A DNA stretch of 64,000 nt, taken from sequence record OQ703618.1; one strand, 5' to 3'. The position numbers and the translations under genes were made by a program. Below are positions 25,740 through 31,741 of the stretch, one piece after another. Numbering within the stretch: position 1 is the stretch's first letter; each line of letters begins with the position of its first letter. The stretch comes from Escherichia phage GADS24. The notes under the pieces were generated by a model. That model had not been told where the DNA came from, ran no database searches, and was given only the letters and a program-made list of their open reading frames with translations.

Positions 25740-26639
25740 TTATTCCTCGATTACGACATCTTCGTATTTAGGTATATTATACGGTGAAGAAATTAAAGCA
25801 TTAAAGTAGATGAACTCGCCAAGACCTGGATGGAATACTTCTTCAGGATTTTCGAAATATTGAATCTTCGGCCGTCCTTTAAGAATTTGATAGTACTCAG
25901 TTTTAGTTGGTTTAAAAATTCGAATCAGCGCTTCTTCAGGATACTTATTTCTATCGAAGCTATTATTTGGATCGGTTACATAAAGCGGTTGACCTAATTG
26001 AATTGCACATTCAACCACTTGTTCAAAACGATAGCACGGGTCACTAATTCGAAATGGATGAAAAATACCATCTAGATGAATAGGAGCCAAATCACCTACA
26101 AAACGCTGCATGATGGAAGGACGTATAACTTTCTGGGTTACGATAATCTTATTACCATCTGCACCAGCGTTAACCAGCACTTCCTTTTGACGTTCATTCA
26201 ACACAGTAGTTTGAAGTGAACGATTAACCGACAACATGTCGGTTTTTAAGAATTCGTCAATATAAAAACGTGGTTTATTAGGGTCTGCAGTGATATTGAA
26301 ATTGAATTCTACATCAAAAGCTCCGTCATATCCAGTGATATCTGTTATTAGAAAATCACAATCATAATAAGCAATTAATGAATCAACCACAAATTCATTT
26401 TCAGACCAGAAATATTTACGAGTGTTATACGCGTTATCTTTATACCATAACGGAACAAACTTAAATTCTGGGAAAAGACGTTCACATTCTTTAATATCAG
26501 ATGCATTACGTGGATATGTAATAACATCACCCGGATTAGCACGGTGCAAATGAAGTTGGAAGTTGCCATCCTTAAGGATAGCATACTCTCCAGTTTCATA
26601 AGACCGCATACTCAAGATAGGTACGCGGAAAATAGCCAT
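25740..26639 (-). CDS. putative glycosyltransferase (GT-B-like) at the T4 beta-gt locus
   Basis: 299 aa; C-terminal FEQVVECAIQLGQPLYVTD resembles GT-B donor-binding motif; position uvsX-42. Confidence 0.45.
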   Translation of the reverse strand: MAIFRVPILSMRSYETGEYAILKDGNFQLHLHRANPGDVITYPRNASDIKECERLFPEFKFVPLWYKDNAYNTRKYFWSENEFVVDSLIAYYDCDFLITDITGYDGAFDVEFNFNITADPNKPRFYIDEFLKTDMLSVNRSLQTTVLNERQKEVLVNAGADGNKIIVTQKVIRPSIMQRFVGDLAPIHLDGIFHPFRISDPCYRFEQVVECAIQLGQPLYVTDPNNSFDRNKYPEEALIRIFKPTKTEYYQILKGRPKIQYFENPEEVFHPGLGEFIYFNALISSPYNIPKYEDVVIEE

Positions 26640-27355
26640 TAGTCAAGGAATCCTTTAACATAATCAAAATCACGTTCAAACACATGGGCACTTACCATGG
26701 TATGAGTATAATCACCAACTTCTACACCACATTCGTTAGCGATATAATGAAGTAATTTTCCTTGGAGATAAAAATCCAACTGCATAACAACAGCACAGTT
26801 CTGAGAACGCATATGGCAGTGGGTATAAAGCTTACCATCACGAATATAATAAGTCACTGAGTCAGTACATGGATATTCAAGCGTTTCGTCCGAATCAAGC
26901 AAAGCCTGATCAGAACTTTCTAGAATTTGGAACACAACTCTTCGAGAGTTAGGTTTCTCTTTAAGTTCTTTGAGAAGAGCTGGTAACTGGGCCGCAATTC
27001 GTGGACCATAGAAAGTGTTGAAGTTTGCAGGCAAAGCATCTGATTTCGGTTTAGAAATAAATTTAGCAACGTTAGGATATGCCTTAAATGCTTCTTCTGC
27101 ATCAGTTCCGCCAGAAATCATAAATTTCCAGAAATCTTCGGCATATTCATAAGAGATGCGGTTAATACGTGGGTCGGTCATTTTGAATGATGATGGAGTG
27201 TCAACAACTACTGTCATAGACCCAATTTCATTACAACGTCCAATACGAGAATCAGTTACGAATTCCGGGTTTTCTAAAATCTCACGATTGACTGCTTTAA
27301 ATGCGGATTGAAAATCTGCGGCTTTAATATATTTCATTGTGTTATGTTTTCCCAT
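26639..27355 (-). CDS. 42: dCMP hydroxymethylase gp42 (thymidylate synthase fold)
   Basis: 238 aa; NSRR...YPCTDSV...HMRSQN motifs parallel T4 gp42. Confidence 0.8.
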   Translation of the reverse strand: MGKHNTMKYIKAADFQSAFKAVNREILENPEFVTDSRIGRCNEIGSMTVVVDTPSSFKMTDPRINRISYEYAEDFWKFMISGGTDAEEAFKAYPNVAKFISKPKSDALPANFNTFYGPRIAAQLPALLKELKEKPNSRRVVFQILESSDQALLDSDETLEYPCTDSVTYYIRDGKLYTHCHMRSQNCAVVMQLDFYLQGKLLHYIANECGVEVGDYTHTMVSAHVFERDFDYVKGFLD

Positions 27356-27396: not shown

Positions 27397-27636
27397 TTAT
27401 TTGAATTTCTTAGCGATGTTGATATAACGTAGAGCTTCGGCATCGATACTTCTAAGGACACTATGAAGGAATGCGTCGGCATAGTATTCTAGTTGAACAG
27501 GTTCTTTAATCGCTTTAGCCGCTTTAGTTTCAAACAGGCCCATAAGGGCCTTTTTAAGAATTTGTTCGTTGCTGGTAATTTTAATAGTCAAAATCTCTTC
27601 ATTAAGTTGGTGGTTAAAAGTTTTTCTAGAAATCAT
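27397..27636 (-). CDS. hypothetical protein
   Basis: 79-aa ORF. Confidence 0.4.
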   Translation of the reverse strand: MISRKTFNHQLNEEILTIKITSNEQILKKALMGLFETKAAKAIKEPVQLEYYADAFLHSVLRSIDAEALRYINIAKKFK

Positions 27637-28793
27637 TCCGGGTACCTCAAAGCGTCGTCAGAGTTAGTTATATCAATAATAGATATAGAATTTTCTGATA
27701 ACCCATTTTTAGATAACTGACGTTTATAATATCTTTCACAATATGTACACGTCGTCCCGCAGATTTCATTAGCACAATCGAAATCTGGATGTCTGAACCA
27801 CCTTTTTTCTAAAAAGCCGTCTAACAAAGAGGTTTCAATATTTACCGTATGTGAAAACTCGGTCTCATTTTCAAGAGTGAAAATGGTCTCTAAAGGCTTC
27901 CACAGTTCTAACAAATTACCTTCAAACTTTTCAGAAGCGTATGCTTCAAGAACTTTCAAAATGTAGTCTGTGCTACCTGTACGTCCTGAAACTTTGAATT
28001 GAGTGATACCAATATCATTATAAAGTTTCAAATCTTGTGGACGAACAAAACGAGTTCTCAACCAGTTAAATGGGTCTGTATCACGAGCTTTAATACAGTG
28101 CTGCATAGGATATCCATTTAAGGATTTAGCATCATCAGCTGTAACATCAGTACTATGGAAAATATAGCAAGAGTCACGATAGCTACAATGTGTTGTATAC
28201 CCTTTACCAGCATTAGAACAGAACTCATTTACAAGAACTTCAAATATTATATTGTTCTTATTGCAAAACTCTGCTGCACGCTTCAGGAAAGAAACTGAAC
28301 GGTTCTTATGAATTCCACAGCAGACCTTTTTGATATTATACTGGTCATGTAAGTATTTGATTTGAGTTACAGCATCGACATGTAAAATTGTTGAAACTTC
28401 AATCTCAATGTCTTTATTGACTTCACGAACAATTTCCATAACAACAGGGTTAGCGATAGTAATACGCCATACGCCTATTGACCAAAGATACTGAACATAA
28501 TCCTGAATAGCTTTCTTCTTCCACTCAACTAGTTCTCTTTTTGAACCGGGATTTATCGTGTTGAGTGTATAGTTAAAGCAAATACCTAATTCGTTACAAC
28601 GTTTAACGTAATCTTCTAACATCTTTTTGTCAACGTCAGGAAGCCTAAAATCAGGTCTGGCTGCTACAAAAGCCATTTCTCTTGTAGAGCCGTATACTTC
28701 GTTTATCAAGCTATTAGGATAAGTTTTATTGAGCTCTACGATTTTATCAAGAAGAGCTAAATCAAAATTCGTTCCGATTTTAAAAGTATTCAT
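27633..28793 (-). CDS. Cys-rich hypothetical enzyme in modification cluster
   Basis: ~386 aa from ATG preceded by A9 tract; multiple Cys clusters (CCGIH, CANEICGTTCTYCE). Confidence 0.5.
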   Translation of the reverse strand: MNTFKIGTNFDLALLDKIVELNKTYPNSLINEVYGSTREMAFVAARPDFRLPDVDKKMLEDYVKRCNELGICFNYTLNTINPGSKRELVEWKKKAIQDYVQYLWSIGVWRITIANPVVMEIVREVNKDIEIEVSTILHVDAVTQIKYLHDQYNIKKVCCGIHKNRSVSFLKRAAEFCNKNNIIFEVLVNEFCSNAGKGYTTHCSYRDSCYIFHSTDVTADDAKSLNGYPMQHCIKARDTDPFNWLRTRFVRPQDLKLYNDIGITQFKVSGRTGSTDYILKVLEAYASEKFEGNLLELWKPLETIFTLENETEFSHTVNIETSLLDGFLEKRWFRHPDFDCANEICGTTCTYCERYYKRQLSKNGLSENSISIIDITNSDDALRYPE

Positions 28794-28852
28794 TTTTTTT
28801 TTGCATCTCACGTTAATTGACGCGATGGTTTTTGCAGGTCTTACTTAAATTA

Positions 28853-29239
28853 TTATAGATTCGGTTTATATGATTTAAATGTTTCGAATTCGCCTTTATT
28901 CATAAGAGCTTTGAATTCGTCGGGACGCATAGCTTTGTCGTCGATAATCCAATCATATACTGGTTTATGTGTTAGCAAATTATGGTACTTCAAGCCAATG
29001 TTTGCCAAGTTCTGAATAAGACTTGGGAGAATGTCAATTGCTATACGACCAGGACCTACTGACTTCATACCGCGAGCAGTGTAAAGCGTTATGGTATGCC
29101 CTGCATCATACAGGGCATTAATGGCAGACACCATTTCGACGTCTGGTTTGAAGTTCACGTAATCACGATTGTTATTCCACTCTGTTATACAATCATCGAC
29201 ATCAAAACAAAGATTAAGCATGTTTTCTACACGGTGCAT
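28853..29239 (-). CDS. HAD-like phosphatase (small)
   Basis: FDVDDC motif (DxD) near N-terminus; start overlaps upstream stop (TAATG). Confidence 0.45.
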   Translation of the reverse strand: MHRVENMLNLCFDVDDCITEWNNNRDYVNFKPDVEMVSAINALYDAGHTITLYTARGMKSVGPGRIAIDILPSLIQNLANIGLKYHNLLTHKPVYDWIIDDKAMRPDEFKALMNKGEFETFKSYKPNL

Positions 29240-30924
29240 TAGATTCGTTCCCATTGATGAGTGATATCGCCACCGATTGGACGATAGGAAACACCAGTTT
29301 CTTTATCAGTTAGTACCCATTTACCAGGATTTTTTGTAATCAGAGTAGCCGTTACAGGTTCTGCCATGTCATAACTAATAGAGCCGTCCTGAAGTACACG
29401 GCCCATGTTACGTAATTGCTTAGTCAGAAGTTCCATACCTTTATAATATGCGGCTACCGCTTTAAGTGGATTATTCTTGAAATAACCACCTAATGCAATC
29501 CAGATAATTGCTACAGCCAAATGATGATACTCGTTAAATGAACTCATCTTTCCATATTTGTAAACTAATGGATTGATGTTAATAGTCACATTACAAGTTG
29601 TTTCATCAATAGTAAACTGTCCCCAGGTCGGATTAGCGTTGAATTCATCATAACCTGAAACAGCATAAAGCACTTTAGCTTCATCGTACAATTTTGGCCC
29701 GTAAATCTTGGTTTCGCCAAAATATCCACGAGGGTCGATAAACTTGACTTCGCCGTTATCAGTAATCATAGTATTACTGAAGTTCGGGTCACCGTGAATA
29801 ACAGAGTACTGTCCCTGAGAACGGTTATGATAACGAATAAGGTGTTCTAAAGCTTGTTTCAGCATTGGCTTCAGACGCCCAATCTTAGTGTAGTTCACAT
29901 GTGTGATTTTACCAAATGAATCAATCAATGGTTGAATACTTTCACAACGATCAATAACTTTCGTATAGAATTCTTTAGTGAAATCACGACGAACAGTTTC
30001 AGGACTTACAAAATAAGTGTCTGTGCTGAATTTCAGTGCATCTAAAATTGCATCAACAATTTGTGGACGAGCAAGACTCGATTTAGATTTAATATATTCA
30101 AATGCCGGCTTACCTTTAATGCGTTCCATTTCAAAGTTATTTTCATTAACAGAAACTAACTGAGGAACTGAATCTGATTTCACTTTAAGATACCATGAAA
30201 TCTCATCTTTCTGAAGAGCTCGTCCCTGTTCGGTTAATGCGAATTTAGTTACAGTTTCTTCACCAATTTCAACTGCATTAAAACTACGATTAAGTTCACG
30301 AACTTCATGAGCTTTTTCAAGTTTAGGCATATCACCTAAATCAATTAGATTCATAAGCTCTGATTTATTGAATGCGCCGCTGTAAAGGAATTCTACGAAA
30401 TCACGTCCTTTGCAGTATTCATGAATTTCCTCATCAGTAGAACCCATATAGAATTCCCAGTCTTTGAATTGATAAATTCCTACAACATTACCACCTGTTG
30501 AACCTACGTTAGTGATATTTTCACCGTCGAAATTATATCGACATTCGTCACCCTTAACATAGATTGCGTTAACATTCCAAGACCATGAACCAAAATCAGG
30601 AATAATATCACACCAGTTAACAATTACATTATGGCCGTCTAAATCTTTGTGTAATTTAGCAAGAGCATAAGCGGAACCATATGCTTCATCAACTGTACGA
30701 ATAGTCACATTGAACCCTTCTTGCTCACAATAAGCTCGAACAGTTTCAGCAAATTTTGAATGAACTACTACAATAATTTCATCTGCGCCAAGGTCAGAAT
30801 AAATTGTATACAAATTGCTCAGAATAGTGTCTTGTTTATAGTTAACAAGCACCTTAGGAATATGATGCGTTATTGGATACAAACGAGTTGCCAGTCCAGC
30901 ACCAAGAATAACAGCTTTTTTCAT
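29239..30924 (-). CDS. bifunctional sugar-1-phosphate nucleotidyltransferase / APH-like sugar kinase
   Basis: N-term GAGLATRLYPITHHIPKVL (G-x-G-T-R NTase); C-term HGDPNFSN and IDPRG (Brenner kinase motifs). Confidence 0.7.
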   Translation of the reverse strand: MKKAVILGAGLATRLYPITHHIPKVLVNYKQDTILSNLYTIYSDLGADEIIVVVHSKFAETVRAYCEQEGFNVTIRTVDEAYGSAYALAKLHKDLDGHNVIVNWCDIIPDFGSWSWNVNAIYVKGDECRYNFDGENITNVGSTGGNVVGIYQFKDWEFYMGSTDEEIHEYCKGRDFVEFLYSGAFNKSELMNLIDLGDMPKLEKAHEVRELNRSFNAVEIGEETVTKFALTEQGRALQKDEISWYLKVKSDSVPQLVSVNENNFEMERIKGKPAFEYIKSKSSLARPQIVDAILDALKFSTDTYFVSPETVRRDFTKEFYTKVIDRCESIQPLIDSFGKITHVNYTKIGRLKPMLKQALEHLIRYHNRSQGQYSVIHGDPNFSNTMITDNGEVKFIDPRGYFGETKIYGPKLYDEAKVLYAVSGYDEFNANPTWGQFTIDETTCNVTININPLVYKYGKMSSFNEYHHLAVAIIWIALGGYFKNNPLKAVAAYYKGMELLTKQLRNMGRVLQDGSISYDMAEPVTATLITKNPGKWVLTDKETGVSYRPIGGDITHQWERI

Positions 30925-31105: not shown

Positions 31106-31741
31106 TCATTGTTCGCCTCGTAACATGGCACCTAGTGCACCACCAGGGTGGAACTTAAGGAAGTCATTAGAGGTAAATCCACGTTCAGACGAAAGGTTGA
31201 TAGCGAACGTATCGATAAGCGCTAACAACAATGTAGTAGACATTGTCGGAGCTAAAGAGTTCTCGTCAACTTCTACCGCGATGCCTGTACAGAAAGAGTA
31301 ATCAAAAAGGGCTTCATTTTCTTGCGGAATGTCAGGGTTACAATGTAACAGAATCTGTTTAACCTGAGGACGAATCATACGAAGATGTTTAGCAACACCT
31401 ATCATTTCTTCGGTTTTACCAGAACGACTAATATGAATCAACACATCATTAGGCGCAATGAATCCTGCATCACCGTGAGAATAATGCCCAGTGTTCAAGT
31501 ACATACTCGGGATACCGAGTGAAGCAAATGTCTCAGAAGCTTTAGTTGCAATATTAGCATTCTTACCAACACCTGTAATAATTACTCGGCTTTCATAATT
31601 ACTAAGTCCTGGGCGTCGAAGAGTTTCTAGAATAGCATTATAACGAGCAGGGTTTTGACTAATTACTTTGGCCATAGTAGCCAAAGAAGAAGCTTGTTTT
31701 ACGATTGCGTCAATAGCGATAGTAATAGGAGTAGTTTTCAT
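31106..31741 (-). CDS. SIS-domain sugar phosphate isomerase (KdsD/GutQ-type arabinose-5-phosphate isomerase-like, no CBS domains)
   Basis: 211 aa; GVGKNANIATKASETFASLGIPS...HGD...ISRSGKTEE matches SIS signature. Confidence 0.7.
   Translation of the reverse strand: MKTTPITIAIDAIVKQASSLATMAKVISQNPARYNAILETLRRPGLSNYESRVIITGVGKNANIATKASETFASLGIPSMYLNTGHYSHGDAGFIAPNDVLIHISRSGKTEEMIGVAKHLRMIRPQVKQILLHCNPDIPQENEALFDYSFCTGIAVEVDENSLAPTMSTTLLLALIDTFAINLSSERGFTSNDFLKFHPGGALGAMLRGEQ

Follow-up and report, generated by a model that had tools for sequence, protein, structure and literature searches.

Within 64,000 nucleotides of Escherichia phage GADS24 (sequence record OQ703618.1; this whole stretch is called the window below), a minus-strand gene homologous to gene 50 of phage RB69 lies in a DNA-modification cluster, and this report concerns its protein, gp50, and the role in cytosine hydroxylation that we propose for it. 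The phage is a Mosigvirus, a T4-type relative of RB69, and over the 7 kb that surround the gene the window is 97.5% identical to RB69 and 98.5% identical to JN02. GenBank labels homologs of the protein peptidase, collagenase, or hypothetical. The coding sequence and the elements recognized or predicted within it are as follows.

27633..28793, minus strand: homolog of RB69 gp50 / ORF050c, U32-family coding sequence (CDS), 386 amino acids (aa) from the probable ATG (open reading frame list, homolog alignment, HY126 annotation, PF01136, PHROG 5757)
27936..28514, minus strand: Peptidase_U32 (PF01136) domain, residues 100-292, predicted TIM-barrel core (Pfam match to profile positions 2-192 of 233)
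28095..28241, minus strand: predicted catalytic / [4Fe-4S] region, E191 with C198-X10-C209-X5-C215-X23-C239 (alignment with TrhP, UbiU, and RlhA; conservation)
27981..27995, minus strand: K273-V-S-G-R277, counterpart of the U32 'K-I-E-G-R' motif (alignment)
27738..27776, minus strand: C346-X4-C351-X3-C355-X2-C358, predicted second metal or Fe-S site (conservation)

Results

A Conserved Gene of the U32 Family

An earlier note on this DNA had described an open reading frame (ORF) of about 390 aa, and that frame is real, on the minus strand and 392 codons long, with one correction at its start. The mechanical ORF, 27633..28811, opens on a GTG at 28811. Because homologs begin at Met7 (MNTFK...), which corresponds to an ATG in the window at 28793, and because the same protein is annotated as a 386-aa product in phage HY126, the likelier CDS is 27633..28793; the ATG is probably the true start and the GTG merely a mechanical one.

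The gene is under strong purifying selection (dN/dS of 0.01-0.07 against relatives). When 1.84 billion representatives were searched exhaustively with a profile, 451 clusters matched at E <= 1e-30, a number that rose to 1,655 at E <= 1e-3. Among 168 unique relatives, C198, C209, C215, and C239, as well as C346, C351, C355, and C358, are each kept in 168 of 168, C164 is kept in 165, and C183 in 160, while the remaining four cysteines (C3, C72, C78, and C165) are unconserved. Judged from these alignments, the conservation of the cysteines is far beyond chance. When 128 divergent full-length representatives are aligned together with the window protein, C198, C239, K273, and R277 are essentially invariant across the 129 sequences (K273 and R277 in 129/129), and the C-terminal cysteine set is retained in about 77-88% of the divergent representatives. 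The cysteine motifs that had been quoted for the protein are all present, CCGIH at residue 164, CSNAGKGYTTHCSYRDSC at 198, and CANEICGTTCTYCE at 346.

Both sequence comparison and structure prediction place the protein in the U32 family. Peptidase_U32 (PF01136) is the sole Pfam domain detected (E 7.7e-11, 42.2 bits against a gathering cut-off of 22.4). From an alignment of 26 homologs, AlphaFold gave a confident model (pLDDT 89.5, pTM 0.89), and when this was compared with the Protein Data Bank (PDB) by Foldseek, a check that the earlier note had named, the top match was the U32 protein 5d88 (E 8e-8, TM 0.73 normalized to the target, root-mean-square deviation [rmsd] 3.9 Å); lower-ranked matches were generic TIM barrels. 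A sequence search of the PDB with the single sequence and with a profile gave nothing useful, the PADLOC defence models gave no match, and comparison with the thymidylate synthase (TS) superfamily of the gp48 type, a fold with a D169N / N177D signature, revealed no similarity, so that only the U32 family was matched. Profile alignment (hhalign) against the E. coli paralogs ranks RlhA best (E 2.3e-5 over 202 columns), followed by TrhP (0.003) and UbiU (0.007). None of the NCBIfam equivalog models is reached (UbiU, NF047963, scores 18.4 bits against a cut-off of 440), and the phage proteins therefore form a separate subfamily. The full domain architecture of RlhA or TrhP is absent from these proteins of 386-392 aa, which carry only PF01136 and align over the barrel region alone.

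Alignment with E. coli UbiU, UbiV, RlhA, and TrhP brings E191, C198, and C215 opposite TrhP E162, C170, and C177 (C198 is one column off), the residues essential for formation of 5-hydroxyuridine (ho5U) (PMC6599085). E191 is invariant in the homolog alignment. The third Fe-S ligand in UbiU, TrhP, and RlhA (ligand assignment from PMC6747719) has C239 as its phage counterpart in the alignment. Toward a late barrel strand, the phage FKVSGRTGS aligns with VKIEGR of UbiU, LKIEGR of TrhP, and FKIEGR of RlhA, a motif that, on our reading of the present alignment, appears to be a hallmark of the family. The C-terminal Cys4 set has no counterpart in any of the four E. coli proteins.

The protein is enzyme-like and, from its invariant cysteine sets, is predicted very probably to bind metal as Fe-S, much as had been guessed when a metal-dependent enzyme was suggested for this locus. 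That earlier reading had also found no motif that it could place and had set U32 aside; the Pfam score, the 5d88 match, and the alignment of the residues essential in TrhP contradict it, and U32 was probably missed because the spacing of the cysteines is non-canonical. No homology to a non-enzymatic phage protein family, which would have spoken against an enzyme, came to light. Kdo8P synthase, also considered for the protein, finds no support; genes of the DAHP synthase family occur only as neighbors in distant phages.

The DNA-Modification Cluster

The gene is part of a minus-strand cluster between the gp43 DNA polymerase and UvsX. In order, the cluster consists of an SIS isomerase, a nucleoside triphosphate (NTP)-transferase/kinase, a HAD phosphatase, the U32 gene, a 79-aa ORF, a TS homolog, a glycosyltransferase, and a Tmk-like kinase.

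31106..31741, minus strand: SIS-domain arabinose-5-phosphate isomerase, RB69 gp55 type (Pfam SIS, PHROG 5670)
29239..30924, minus strand: bifunctional NTP-transferase / kinase, RB69 gp52:53 / AfhE type (Pfam NTP_transferase and weak, sub-cut-off kinase-family matches; PMC13326640)
28853..29254, minus strand: HAD phosphatase, RB69 gp51 / AfhF type (PHROG 1238; PMC13326640)
27397..27636, minus strand: gp49-like 79-aa ORF (ORF list)
26639..27355, minus strand: thymidylate-synthase homolog, RB69 gp48 type, O2- and flavin-dependent 5-hydroxy-dCMP synthase (99.6% identical to RB69 ORF048c; RSQN...LDF signature)
25740..26639, minus strand: glycosyltransferase, RB69 gp46:47 type, arabinosyltransferase 1 (PHROG 3891; role structure-predicted in PMC13326640)
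25190..25738, minus strand: thymidylate-kinase-like nucleotide kinase, RB69 gp45 type (PHROG 761; PMC13326640 Table 1)

The U32 gene had been placed between a gp42-like gene, which is the TS homolog (26639-27355), and the HAD gene (28853-29254). That position is right on the HAD side; on the TS side the 79-aa ORF (27397-27636) intervenes.

RB69 DNA contains arabinosylated 5-hydroxycytosine, not hydroxymethylcytosine (PMC13326640, 2026 NAR). In the same work, RB69 gp48 was shown experimentally to make 5-hydroxy-dCMP, with the oxygen coming from 18O2 and the enzyme carrying a flavin; the SIS, NTP-transferase/kinase, and HAD proteins lead to UDP-arabinose, and gp46:47 is assigned, on predicted structure, as arabinosyltransferase 1. 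The ortholog of the protein studied here, RB69p050, appears only in Table 1 of that paper, as a 'sugar or heterocycle reductase' with fold matches to 5d88, and is not discussed. In the window the 299-aa glycosyltransferase and the 561-aa NTP-transferase/kinase are single intact ORFs, in agreement with the published claim that sequencing errors account for the split ORFs (46/47 and 52/53) of the RB69 reference.

The start of the gp49-like ORF overlaps the stop of the U32 gene by 4 nt, and the ORF occupies the slot that chorismate mutase (CM) fills in relatives. As a degenerate CM it was rejected: it has no Pfam match, is 13-20% identical to phage CMs, and reaches an hhalign probability of 0.2% against the CM profile, and it coexists with a real CM in four loci (L006, L011, L014, and L019). 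It is Cys-free, conserved, and confined to Mosigvirus-like phages and a few relatives, and it is shortened to 40-58 aa in HY126 (40 aa) and in many database entries.

Association with Chorismate Mutase

Chorismate mutase produces prephenate. The Klebsiella phage KLB31 and the Serratia phage LC53 encode an AroQ chorismate mutase between the U32 gene and the gp48 homolog (CM_2, 38.5 and 44.6 bits against a cut-off of 27), and by the CM profile such a gene directly follows U32 in 15 of 17 T4-like loci, the exceptions being the Mosigvirus type, to which this window belongs, and the Marfa type. Among 62 gp48-type loci from IMG/VR, 15 have U32 upstream, and CM accompanies 13 of these 15 versus none of the 47 that lack U32. 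Altogether CM is found in 54 GenBank phage records, all from T4-like phages of Enterobacterales or Shewanella, and each of the matches listed falls at the TS/U32 locus. Since Acinetobacter phage Maestro, E. coli phage JS98, and Pseudomonas phage PspYZU05 have a HAD or kinase gene joined to gp48 and carry neither U32 nor CM, U32, with or without CM, looks like one insertable module.

Relatives in Phages That Lack gp48

Homologs at 37-58% identity occur on viral contigs of up to 466 kb. We compared 43 non-T4 loci, each with 8-10 kb of flank visible, counting as neighbors the genes within six genes of U32 and scanning for gp48 by pattern. A gp46-type glycosyltransferase is a neighbor in 23 of the 43 and in all 17 T4-like loci, which makes it U32's most constant partner. 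Other neighbors in the non-T4 loci are an NTP-transferase/kinase (14/43), a Tmk-like kinase (11/43), the replicative polymerase PolIII-alpha (10/43), MazG/dUTPase-like pyrophosphatases (6/43), and dCMP deaminase (6/43), and CM, DAHP synthase, or both lie near U32 in nine, in several architectures (one of them, L037, recognized by hidden Markov model only). The scan found a gp48-type enzyme within the visible flank of none of the 43 loci and, collection-wide, in none of the 30 distant viral contigs. The only TS match, in L020, was considered as a hidden gp48 and rejected: with D169 and N177 both retained, it is a canonical enzyme of the dUMP type. In these distant phages, U32 is the only visible candidate for creating a glycosyl acceptor on the base. 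That the window gene belongs functionally to the modification cluster, inside which the earlier note had placed it, is supported.

The arrangements vary. One runs glycosyltransferase, SIS, NTP-transferase/kinase, in some cases a second glycosyltransferase, a DAHP-synthase::chorismate-mutase fusion, a HAD-like gene, and U32, and it also occurs without the fusion; another runs primase, MazG/dUTPase-like pyrophosphatase, Tmk-like kinase, glycosyltransferase, U32, and PolIII-alpha. In further arrangements U32 is followed by DAHP synthase alone or by CM alone. The fusions, of 340-351 aa, adjoin U32 in L030 (8411-9433), L033 (7302-8357), L035 (8332-9387), and L061 (6931-7959); Pfam DAHP_synth_1 and CM_2 are confirmed for L030 and L033, the other fusions having been assigned through family clustering and the CM profile. 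DAHP synthase stands alone beside U32 in L018 (9384-10130) and L055 (11145-11891). Elsewhere among sequenced phages, genes of the shikimate pathway are very rare (15 records, mostly fragmentary).

Several individual loci deserve mention. On the 466-kb JGI contig L001 (7447-9086), U32 comes directly after dCMP deaminase, beside thymidylate kinase, UDG, and PolIII-alpha. Neighbors of the dCMP deaminase kind raise the possibility that some U32 enzymes act on dUMP and give rise to 5-hydroxyuracil derivatives. The genes that flank U32 in L058 (7777-16179) encode a Gly_transf_sug protein, a protein with a weak TAGT-like match (T4 alpha-glucosyltransferase), a dUTPase/DCD-like protein, and GLF (UDP-galactopyranose mutase), a setting that recalls the galactofuranosyl-5-hydroxycytosine system of Rhizobium phage RL38J1, but L058 has no TS homolog. 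Several contigs of the PolIII-alpha type have a radical-SAM/SPASM protein, another oxygen-sensitive Fe-S enzyme in the module, between the Tmk-like kinase and the glycosyltransferase upstream of U32 (L056, 7972-9000; L057, 3138-4166; L044, 6960-7970; also L001, 1-249). Finally, L063-L067 and L041, from genomes and metagenome-assembled genomes (MAGs) of anaerobes (for example L066, 3044-7137, Phocaeicola faecalis), share a conserved four-gene arrangement: a GP88-family gene (PF17338), a guanylate-kinase::SAM-methyltransferase fusion, a protein of about 270 aa with a weak HhH-glycosylase (AGOG) match, and U32. This arrangement looks like a nucleotide or DNA modification module, in which hydroxylation is possibly followed by O-methylation.

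Distribution across Hosts

Homologs of gp48 occur in 373 GenBank phage records, including phages of Acinetobacter (57) and Rhizobium (20) as well as Agrobacterium and Pseudomonas. U32 homologs, all at least 80% identical to the window protein, occur in 221, and each of the organisms listed for these is Enterobacterales or Shewanella. Both genes are carried by all 153 Mosigvirus-level records. Among sequenced gp48-bearing phages of strict aerobes (Acinetobacter, Rhizobium, and Pseudomonas) no U32 was seen, and phage DLP3 has the cluster with neither U32 nor CM (PMC13326640). Across 185,579 species genomes the subfamily is matched in nine, and six of these belong to recognized anaerobic lineages; the nine are Erysipelotrichales, Oscillospiraceae, Gastranaerophilaceae, Tannerella, Phocaeicola, and Angelakisella together with MAGs of Planctomycetota, Woesearchaeota, and BRC1.

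Discussion

Several members of the U32 family are now known as hydroxylation proteins. UbiU and UbiV, which each bind a [4Fe-4S] cluster on four conserved cysteines, are required for the O2-independent hydroxylation of ubiquinone precursors, and the four-cysteine motif is common to most U32 subfamilies (PMC6747719). Prephenate serves as the oxygen donor in U32 hydroxylations (PMC10990095, PMC6599085). These reactions include the O2-independent, prephenate-dependent hydroxylation of pyrimidines at C5, and one of the proteins concerned, TrhP, has an O2-dependent partner, TrhO; the authors regard the pair as an advantage to organisms that live both in the presence and in the absence of oxygen (PMC6599085).

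By analogy with these proteins, we think it probable, with moderate confidence, that gp50 is an anaerobic, prephenate-dependent deoxycytidylate C5-hydroxylase, an O2-independent counterpart of gp48. The most likely deoxycytidine nucleotide substrate is dCMP, a mononucleotide rather than DNA, which would come from the phage dCTPase and be oxidized at C5 within the U32 TIM barrel. The active site would consist of E191 and a [4Fe-4S] cluster held by C198, C209, C215, and C239, as suggested by RlhA, TrhP, and UbiU/V. Prephenate would decarboxylate and donate the hydroxyl group, and the electrons would leave through the Fe-S cluster or clusters, including the second, C-terminal Cys4 site, to an acceptor. 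The resulting 5-hydroxy-dCMP would then follow the same route as the product of gp48, through the deoxynucleoside monophosphate (dNMP) kinase and the polymerase to the arabinosyltransferases that act on DNA. If so, gp48 and gp50 would be an aerobic/anaerobic pair like TrhO/TrhP or UbiIHF/UbiUV. What the analysis shows is the family, the fold, the conserved residues, the purifying selection, and the genomic associations; binding of Fe-S, use of prephenate, independence of O2, and the substrate and its level are inferred from these and from the chemistry of the family. The company of CM and DAHP synthase speaks indirectly for prephenate, and independence of O2 is suggested, again indirectly, by the host distribution. 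A need is also apparent, as the known hydroxylase of the cluster takes its oxygen from O2.

The CM encoded by related phages, and the DAHP synthase of some distant ones, may supply the prephenate; Mosigviruses such as the window phage would use the host's own, which for this phage follows from the lack of a CM gene in the window. We estimate that a 168-kb genome at 37% G+C contains about 62,000 cytosines, so that a burst of 100-200 would consume roughly 10^7 prephenate molecules, and a demand of that size would provide a rationale for phage-borne CM and DAHP synthase.

A number of observations weigh against this proposal. Expression of gp48 alone is enough for 5-hydroxydeoxycytidine formation in aerobic E. 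coli (PMC13326640), and the two U32 enzymes known to hydroxylate pyrimidines both have polymeric RNA, and not mononucleotides, as their substrate. The spacing of the cysteines in the phage protein is CX10CX5CX23C versus a canonical CX6CX15CX3/4C; the canonical fourth position is empty, and the invariant C209, which sits in a phage-specific insertion, is our guess at a replacement fourth ligand. UbiU and UbiV likewise depart from the four-cysteine consensus (PMC6747719). No chorismate mutase was found anywhere in the 64-kb window (best match 9.9 bits). E. coli Dhakaviruses such as JS98 have gp48 and no U32, and U32 is therefore not required for infecting enterobacteria. The host pattern fits an anaerobic role, yet it is confounded by phylogeny, as few clades are involved.

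The distant loci add their own difficulties. Only nine of the 43 have CM or DAHP synthase nearby, 20 have no gp46-type glycosyltransferase within six genes, and seven have U32 in a different operon; several are near-duplicates, so that the counts describe a pattern and not independent events. A human fecal contig (MT837090.1, L131, 'Bacteriophage sp.') carries a DAHP-synthase::CM fusion at 93-926, at the contig edge, and has no U32 on its 11.6 kb. This fusion, 44% identical to that of L061, is either a counter-example or an edge effect.

Other explanations start from the same observations. The chemistry might be the same and the level different, with gp50 acting after replication on residual or newly incorporated cytosine in DNA so as to create the glycosyl acceptor there. 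We regard this as unlikely, even though all characterized pyrimidine-hydroxylating U32 enzymes use polynucleotides, RlhA is the closest E. coli paralog, and U32 adjoins a DNA glycosyltransferase and the replicative polymerase in many loci: the dNMP kinases, MazG/dUTPase-like pyrophosphatases, and dCMP deaminase nearby follow the logic of a pre-replicative nucleotide pathway, and the phage protein has no recognizable nucleic-acid-binding extension, since it is without the additional domains found in RlhA (653 aa) and TrhP (453 aa). Another suggestion is that gp50 is an RNA hydroxylase like TrhP or RlhA, forming ho5U34 on phage or host tRNAs or 5-hydroxycytidine (ho5C) on rRNA to tune translation. 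That is the established function of the nearest characterized relatives, TrhP uses prephenate, and T4-like phages encode tRNAs; CmoA, which belongs to the same cmo5U pathway as TrhP, also uses prephenate, and the CM link could be explained through that pathway. From the T4-like phages to those of the PolIII-alpha type, however, the gene always lies amid genes of DNA modification and nucleotide metabolism, cmoA- or cmoB-like genes are not among the recurrent neighbor families, and the hosts already possess TrhP and RlhA, and we consider an RNA substrate quite improbable.

Slightly less probable still, in our judgment, is an accessory role in redox or sugar metabolism, such as reduction of the gp48 flavin or modification of the pentose, as the label 'sugar or heterocycle reductase' in Table 1 of PMC13326640 would have it. 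Fe-S proteins are often electron carriers, and MTHFR and other TIM barrels that depend on flavin are also among the Foldseek matches (E about 1e-7), but the MTHFR matches are generic to the barrel (rmsd about 9 Å, TM 0.36-0.39 by query and 0.45-0.53 by target). U32 occurs without gp48 in 43 of 43 non-T4 loci, also in loci without sugar-nucleotide genes, and an accessory role leaves the strict link with CM and DAHP synthase unexplained. Moreover, DLP3 and Maestro are reported to make arabinosyl-5-hydroxycytosine without the gene, which is thus not needed for the sugar chemistry, and the PspYZU05 cluster likewise lacks U32; with DLP3 and Maestro in view, the epimerase and the second transferase suggested in the earlier note also find no support. 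The annotation in most GenBank records, a true peptidase or collagenase, can be given almost no weight. In its favor are the name under which the family was first described (Peptidase U32, PrtC collagenase) and the labels in PHROG and GenBank. Against it, catalytic protease residues are not known to have been assigned in this family, every U32 member with a genetically established role is needed for hydroxylation and is Fe-S-dependent, and the phage gene stands among genes of nucleotide and DNA metabolism rather than of virion maturation or lysis.

A wider suggestion, which we put forward tentatively and at a little under an even chance, is that phages may possess a self-contained, O2-independent route to 5-hydroxy-deoxypyrimidine nucleotides, consisting of a dedicated U32 Fe-S hydroxylase and of phage shikimate genes (CM, DAHP synthase) that feed it. 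In RB69-like phages U32 would be the anaerobic twin of gp48, and many uncultured phages of anaerobes would have no base hydroxylase besides it, so that DNA with glycosylated 5-hydroxypyrimidines would be common in viromes from anoxic settings.

The enzyme family and its chemistry are already known, and the latest paper on the pathway (PMC13326640) leaves gp50 unexplained. Full-text literature searches turned up nothing that connects a U32 protein of phages with prephenate, with chorismate mutase, or with the formation of 5-hydroxycytosine under anoxia, although prior mention in subscription-only papers is possible; the Thanatos phage paper has nothing on its U32 homolog, TH1_065. What would be new is a viral U32 member that feeds DNA hypermodification, a single-chain architecture with two Cys4 sets, and a phage-encoded supply of prephenate.

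Such an enzyme would explain how these phages replicate in anoxic hosts, for instance gut bacteria, despite an O2-requiring first hydroxylase in their anti-restriction modification, a point of some relevance to phage therapy with RB69-like phages. DNA precursors would join rRNA, tRNA, and ubiquinone as substrates of U32 hydroxylases, and phage shikimate-pathway genes would acquire a function, the provision of prephenate as a stoichiometric oxygen donor. It would also be predicted that many hydroxylated and glycosylated DNAs, as yet unexplored, exist in phages of anaerobes. According to the authors of the prephenate work, in vitro reconstitution of a U32 hydroxylation has not been achieved (PMC10990095); an enzyme of one chain with a soluble nucleotide as substrate would be much simpler to work with than one whose substrate is a lipid or a folded RNA, and could become the first tractable in vitro U32 prephenate system.

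Comparison with Known Systems

Of the four E. coli paralogs, the one that the phage protein matches best by profile is RlhA (YdcP), the 23S rRNA 5-hydroxycytidine-2501 synthase. The two share the U32 domain, with a local profile match of HC-SYRDSCYIFHS / LCVAYSGQCYISHA, and RlhA is needed for hydroxylation of cytosine at C5, depends on prephenate, and is linked to iron / Fe-S. RlhA has 653 aa with extra C-terminal regions and modifies a single rRNA residue, whereas the phage protein has 386 aa, a variant cysteine spacing, and a unique C-terminal CX4CX3CX2C, and would have about 60,000 cytosines to process per genome copy.

TrhP (YegQ) and TrhO offer the same logic as that proposed here, an O2-independent U32 protein and an unrelated O2-dependent enzyme that arrive at the same 5-hydroxypyrimidine product. 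They differ in substrate, tRNA (ho5U34) as opposed to a nucleotide bound for DNA, and in the aerobic partner, a rhodanese as opposed to a flavin-dependent TS homolog; TrhP (453 aa) also has a C-terminal extension that the phage protein lacks. UbiU and UbiV, again U32 proteins with prephenate as oxygen donor, are anaerobic counterparts of flavin mono-oxygenases, and their heterodimer contains two clusters, where the phage protein has two invariant Cys4 sets within one chain. Their substrate is a lipid, UbiT is required in addition to the heterodimer, and their similarity to the phage protein is weak (hhalign E 0.007). MK0906 of Methanopyrus kandleri (5d88), the only solved U32 structure found here, shares the TIM-barrel core, but is 11% identical, has 247 aa, and lacks the phage C-terminal region.

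Closest in its setting is the gp48-type synthase itself (RB69 gp48, DLP3 gp80, and the HY126 homolog), which would share with gp50 its product, 5-hydroxy-dCMP, and shares its cluster and the downstream kinase and glycosyltransferases; we regard the two as functional analogues only. It differs in its TS-superfamily fold, its flavin, its use of oxygen derived from O2, the experimental demonstration of its activity, and its occurrence in phages of strict aerobes.

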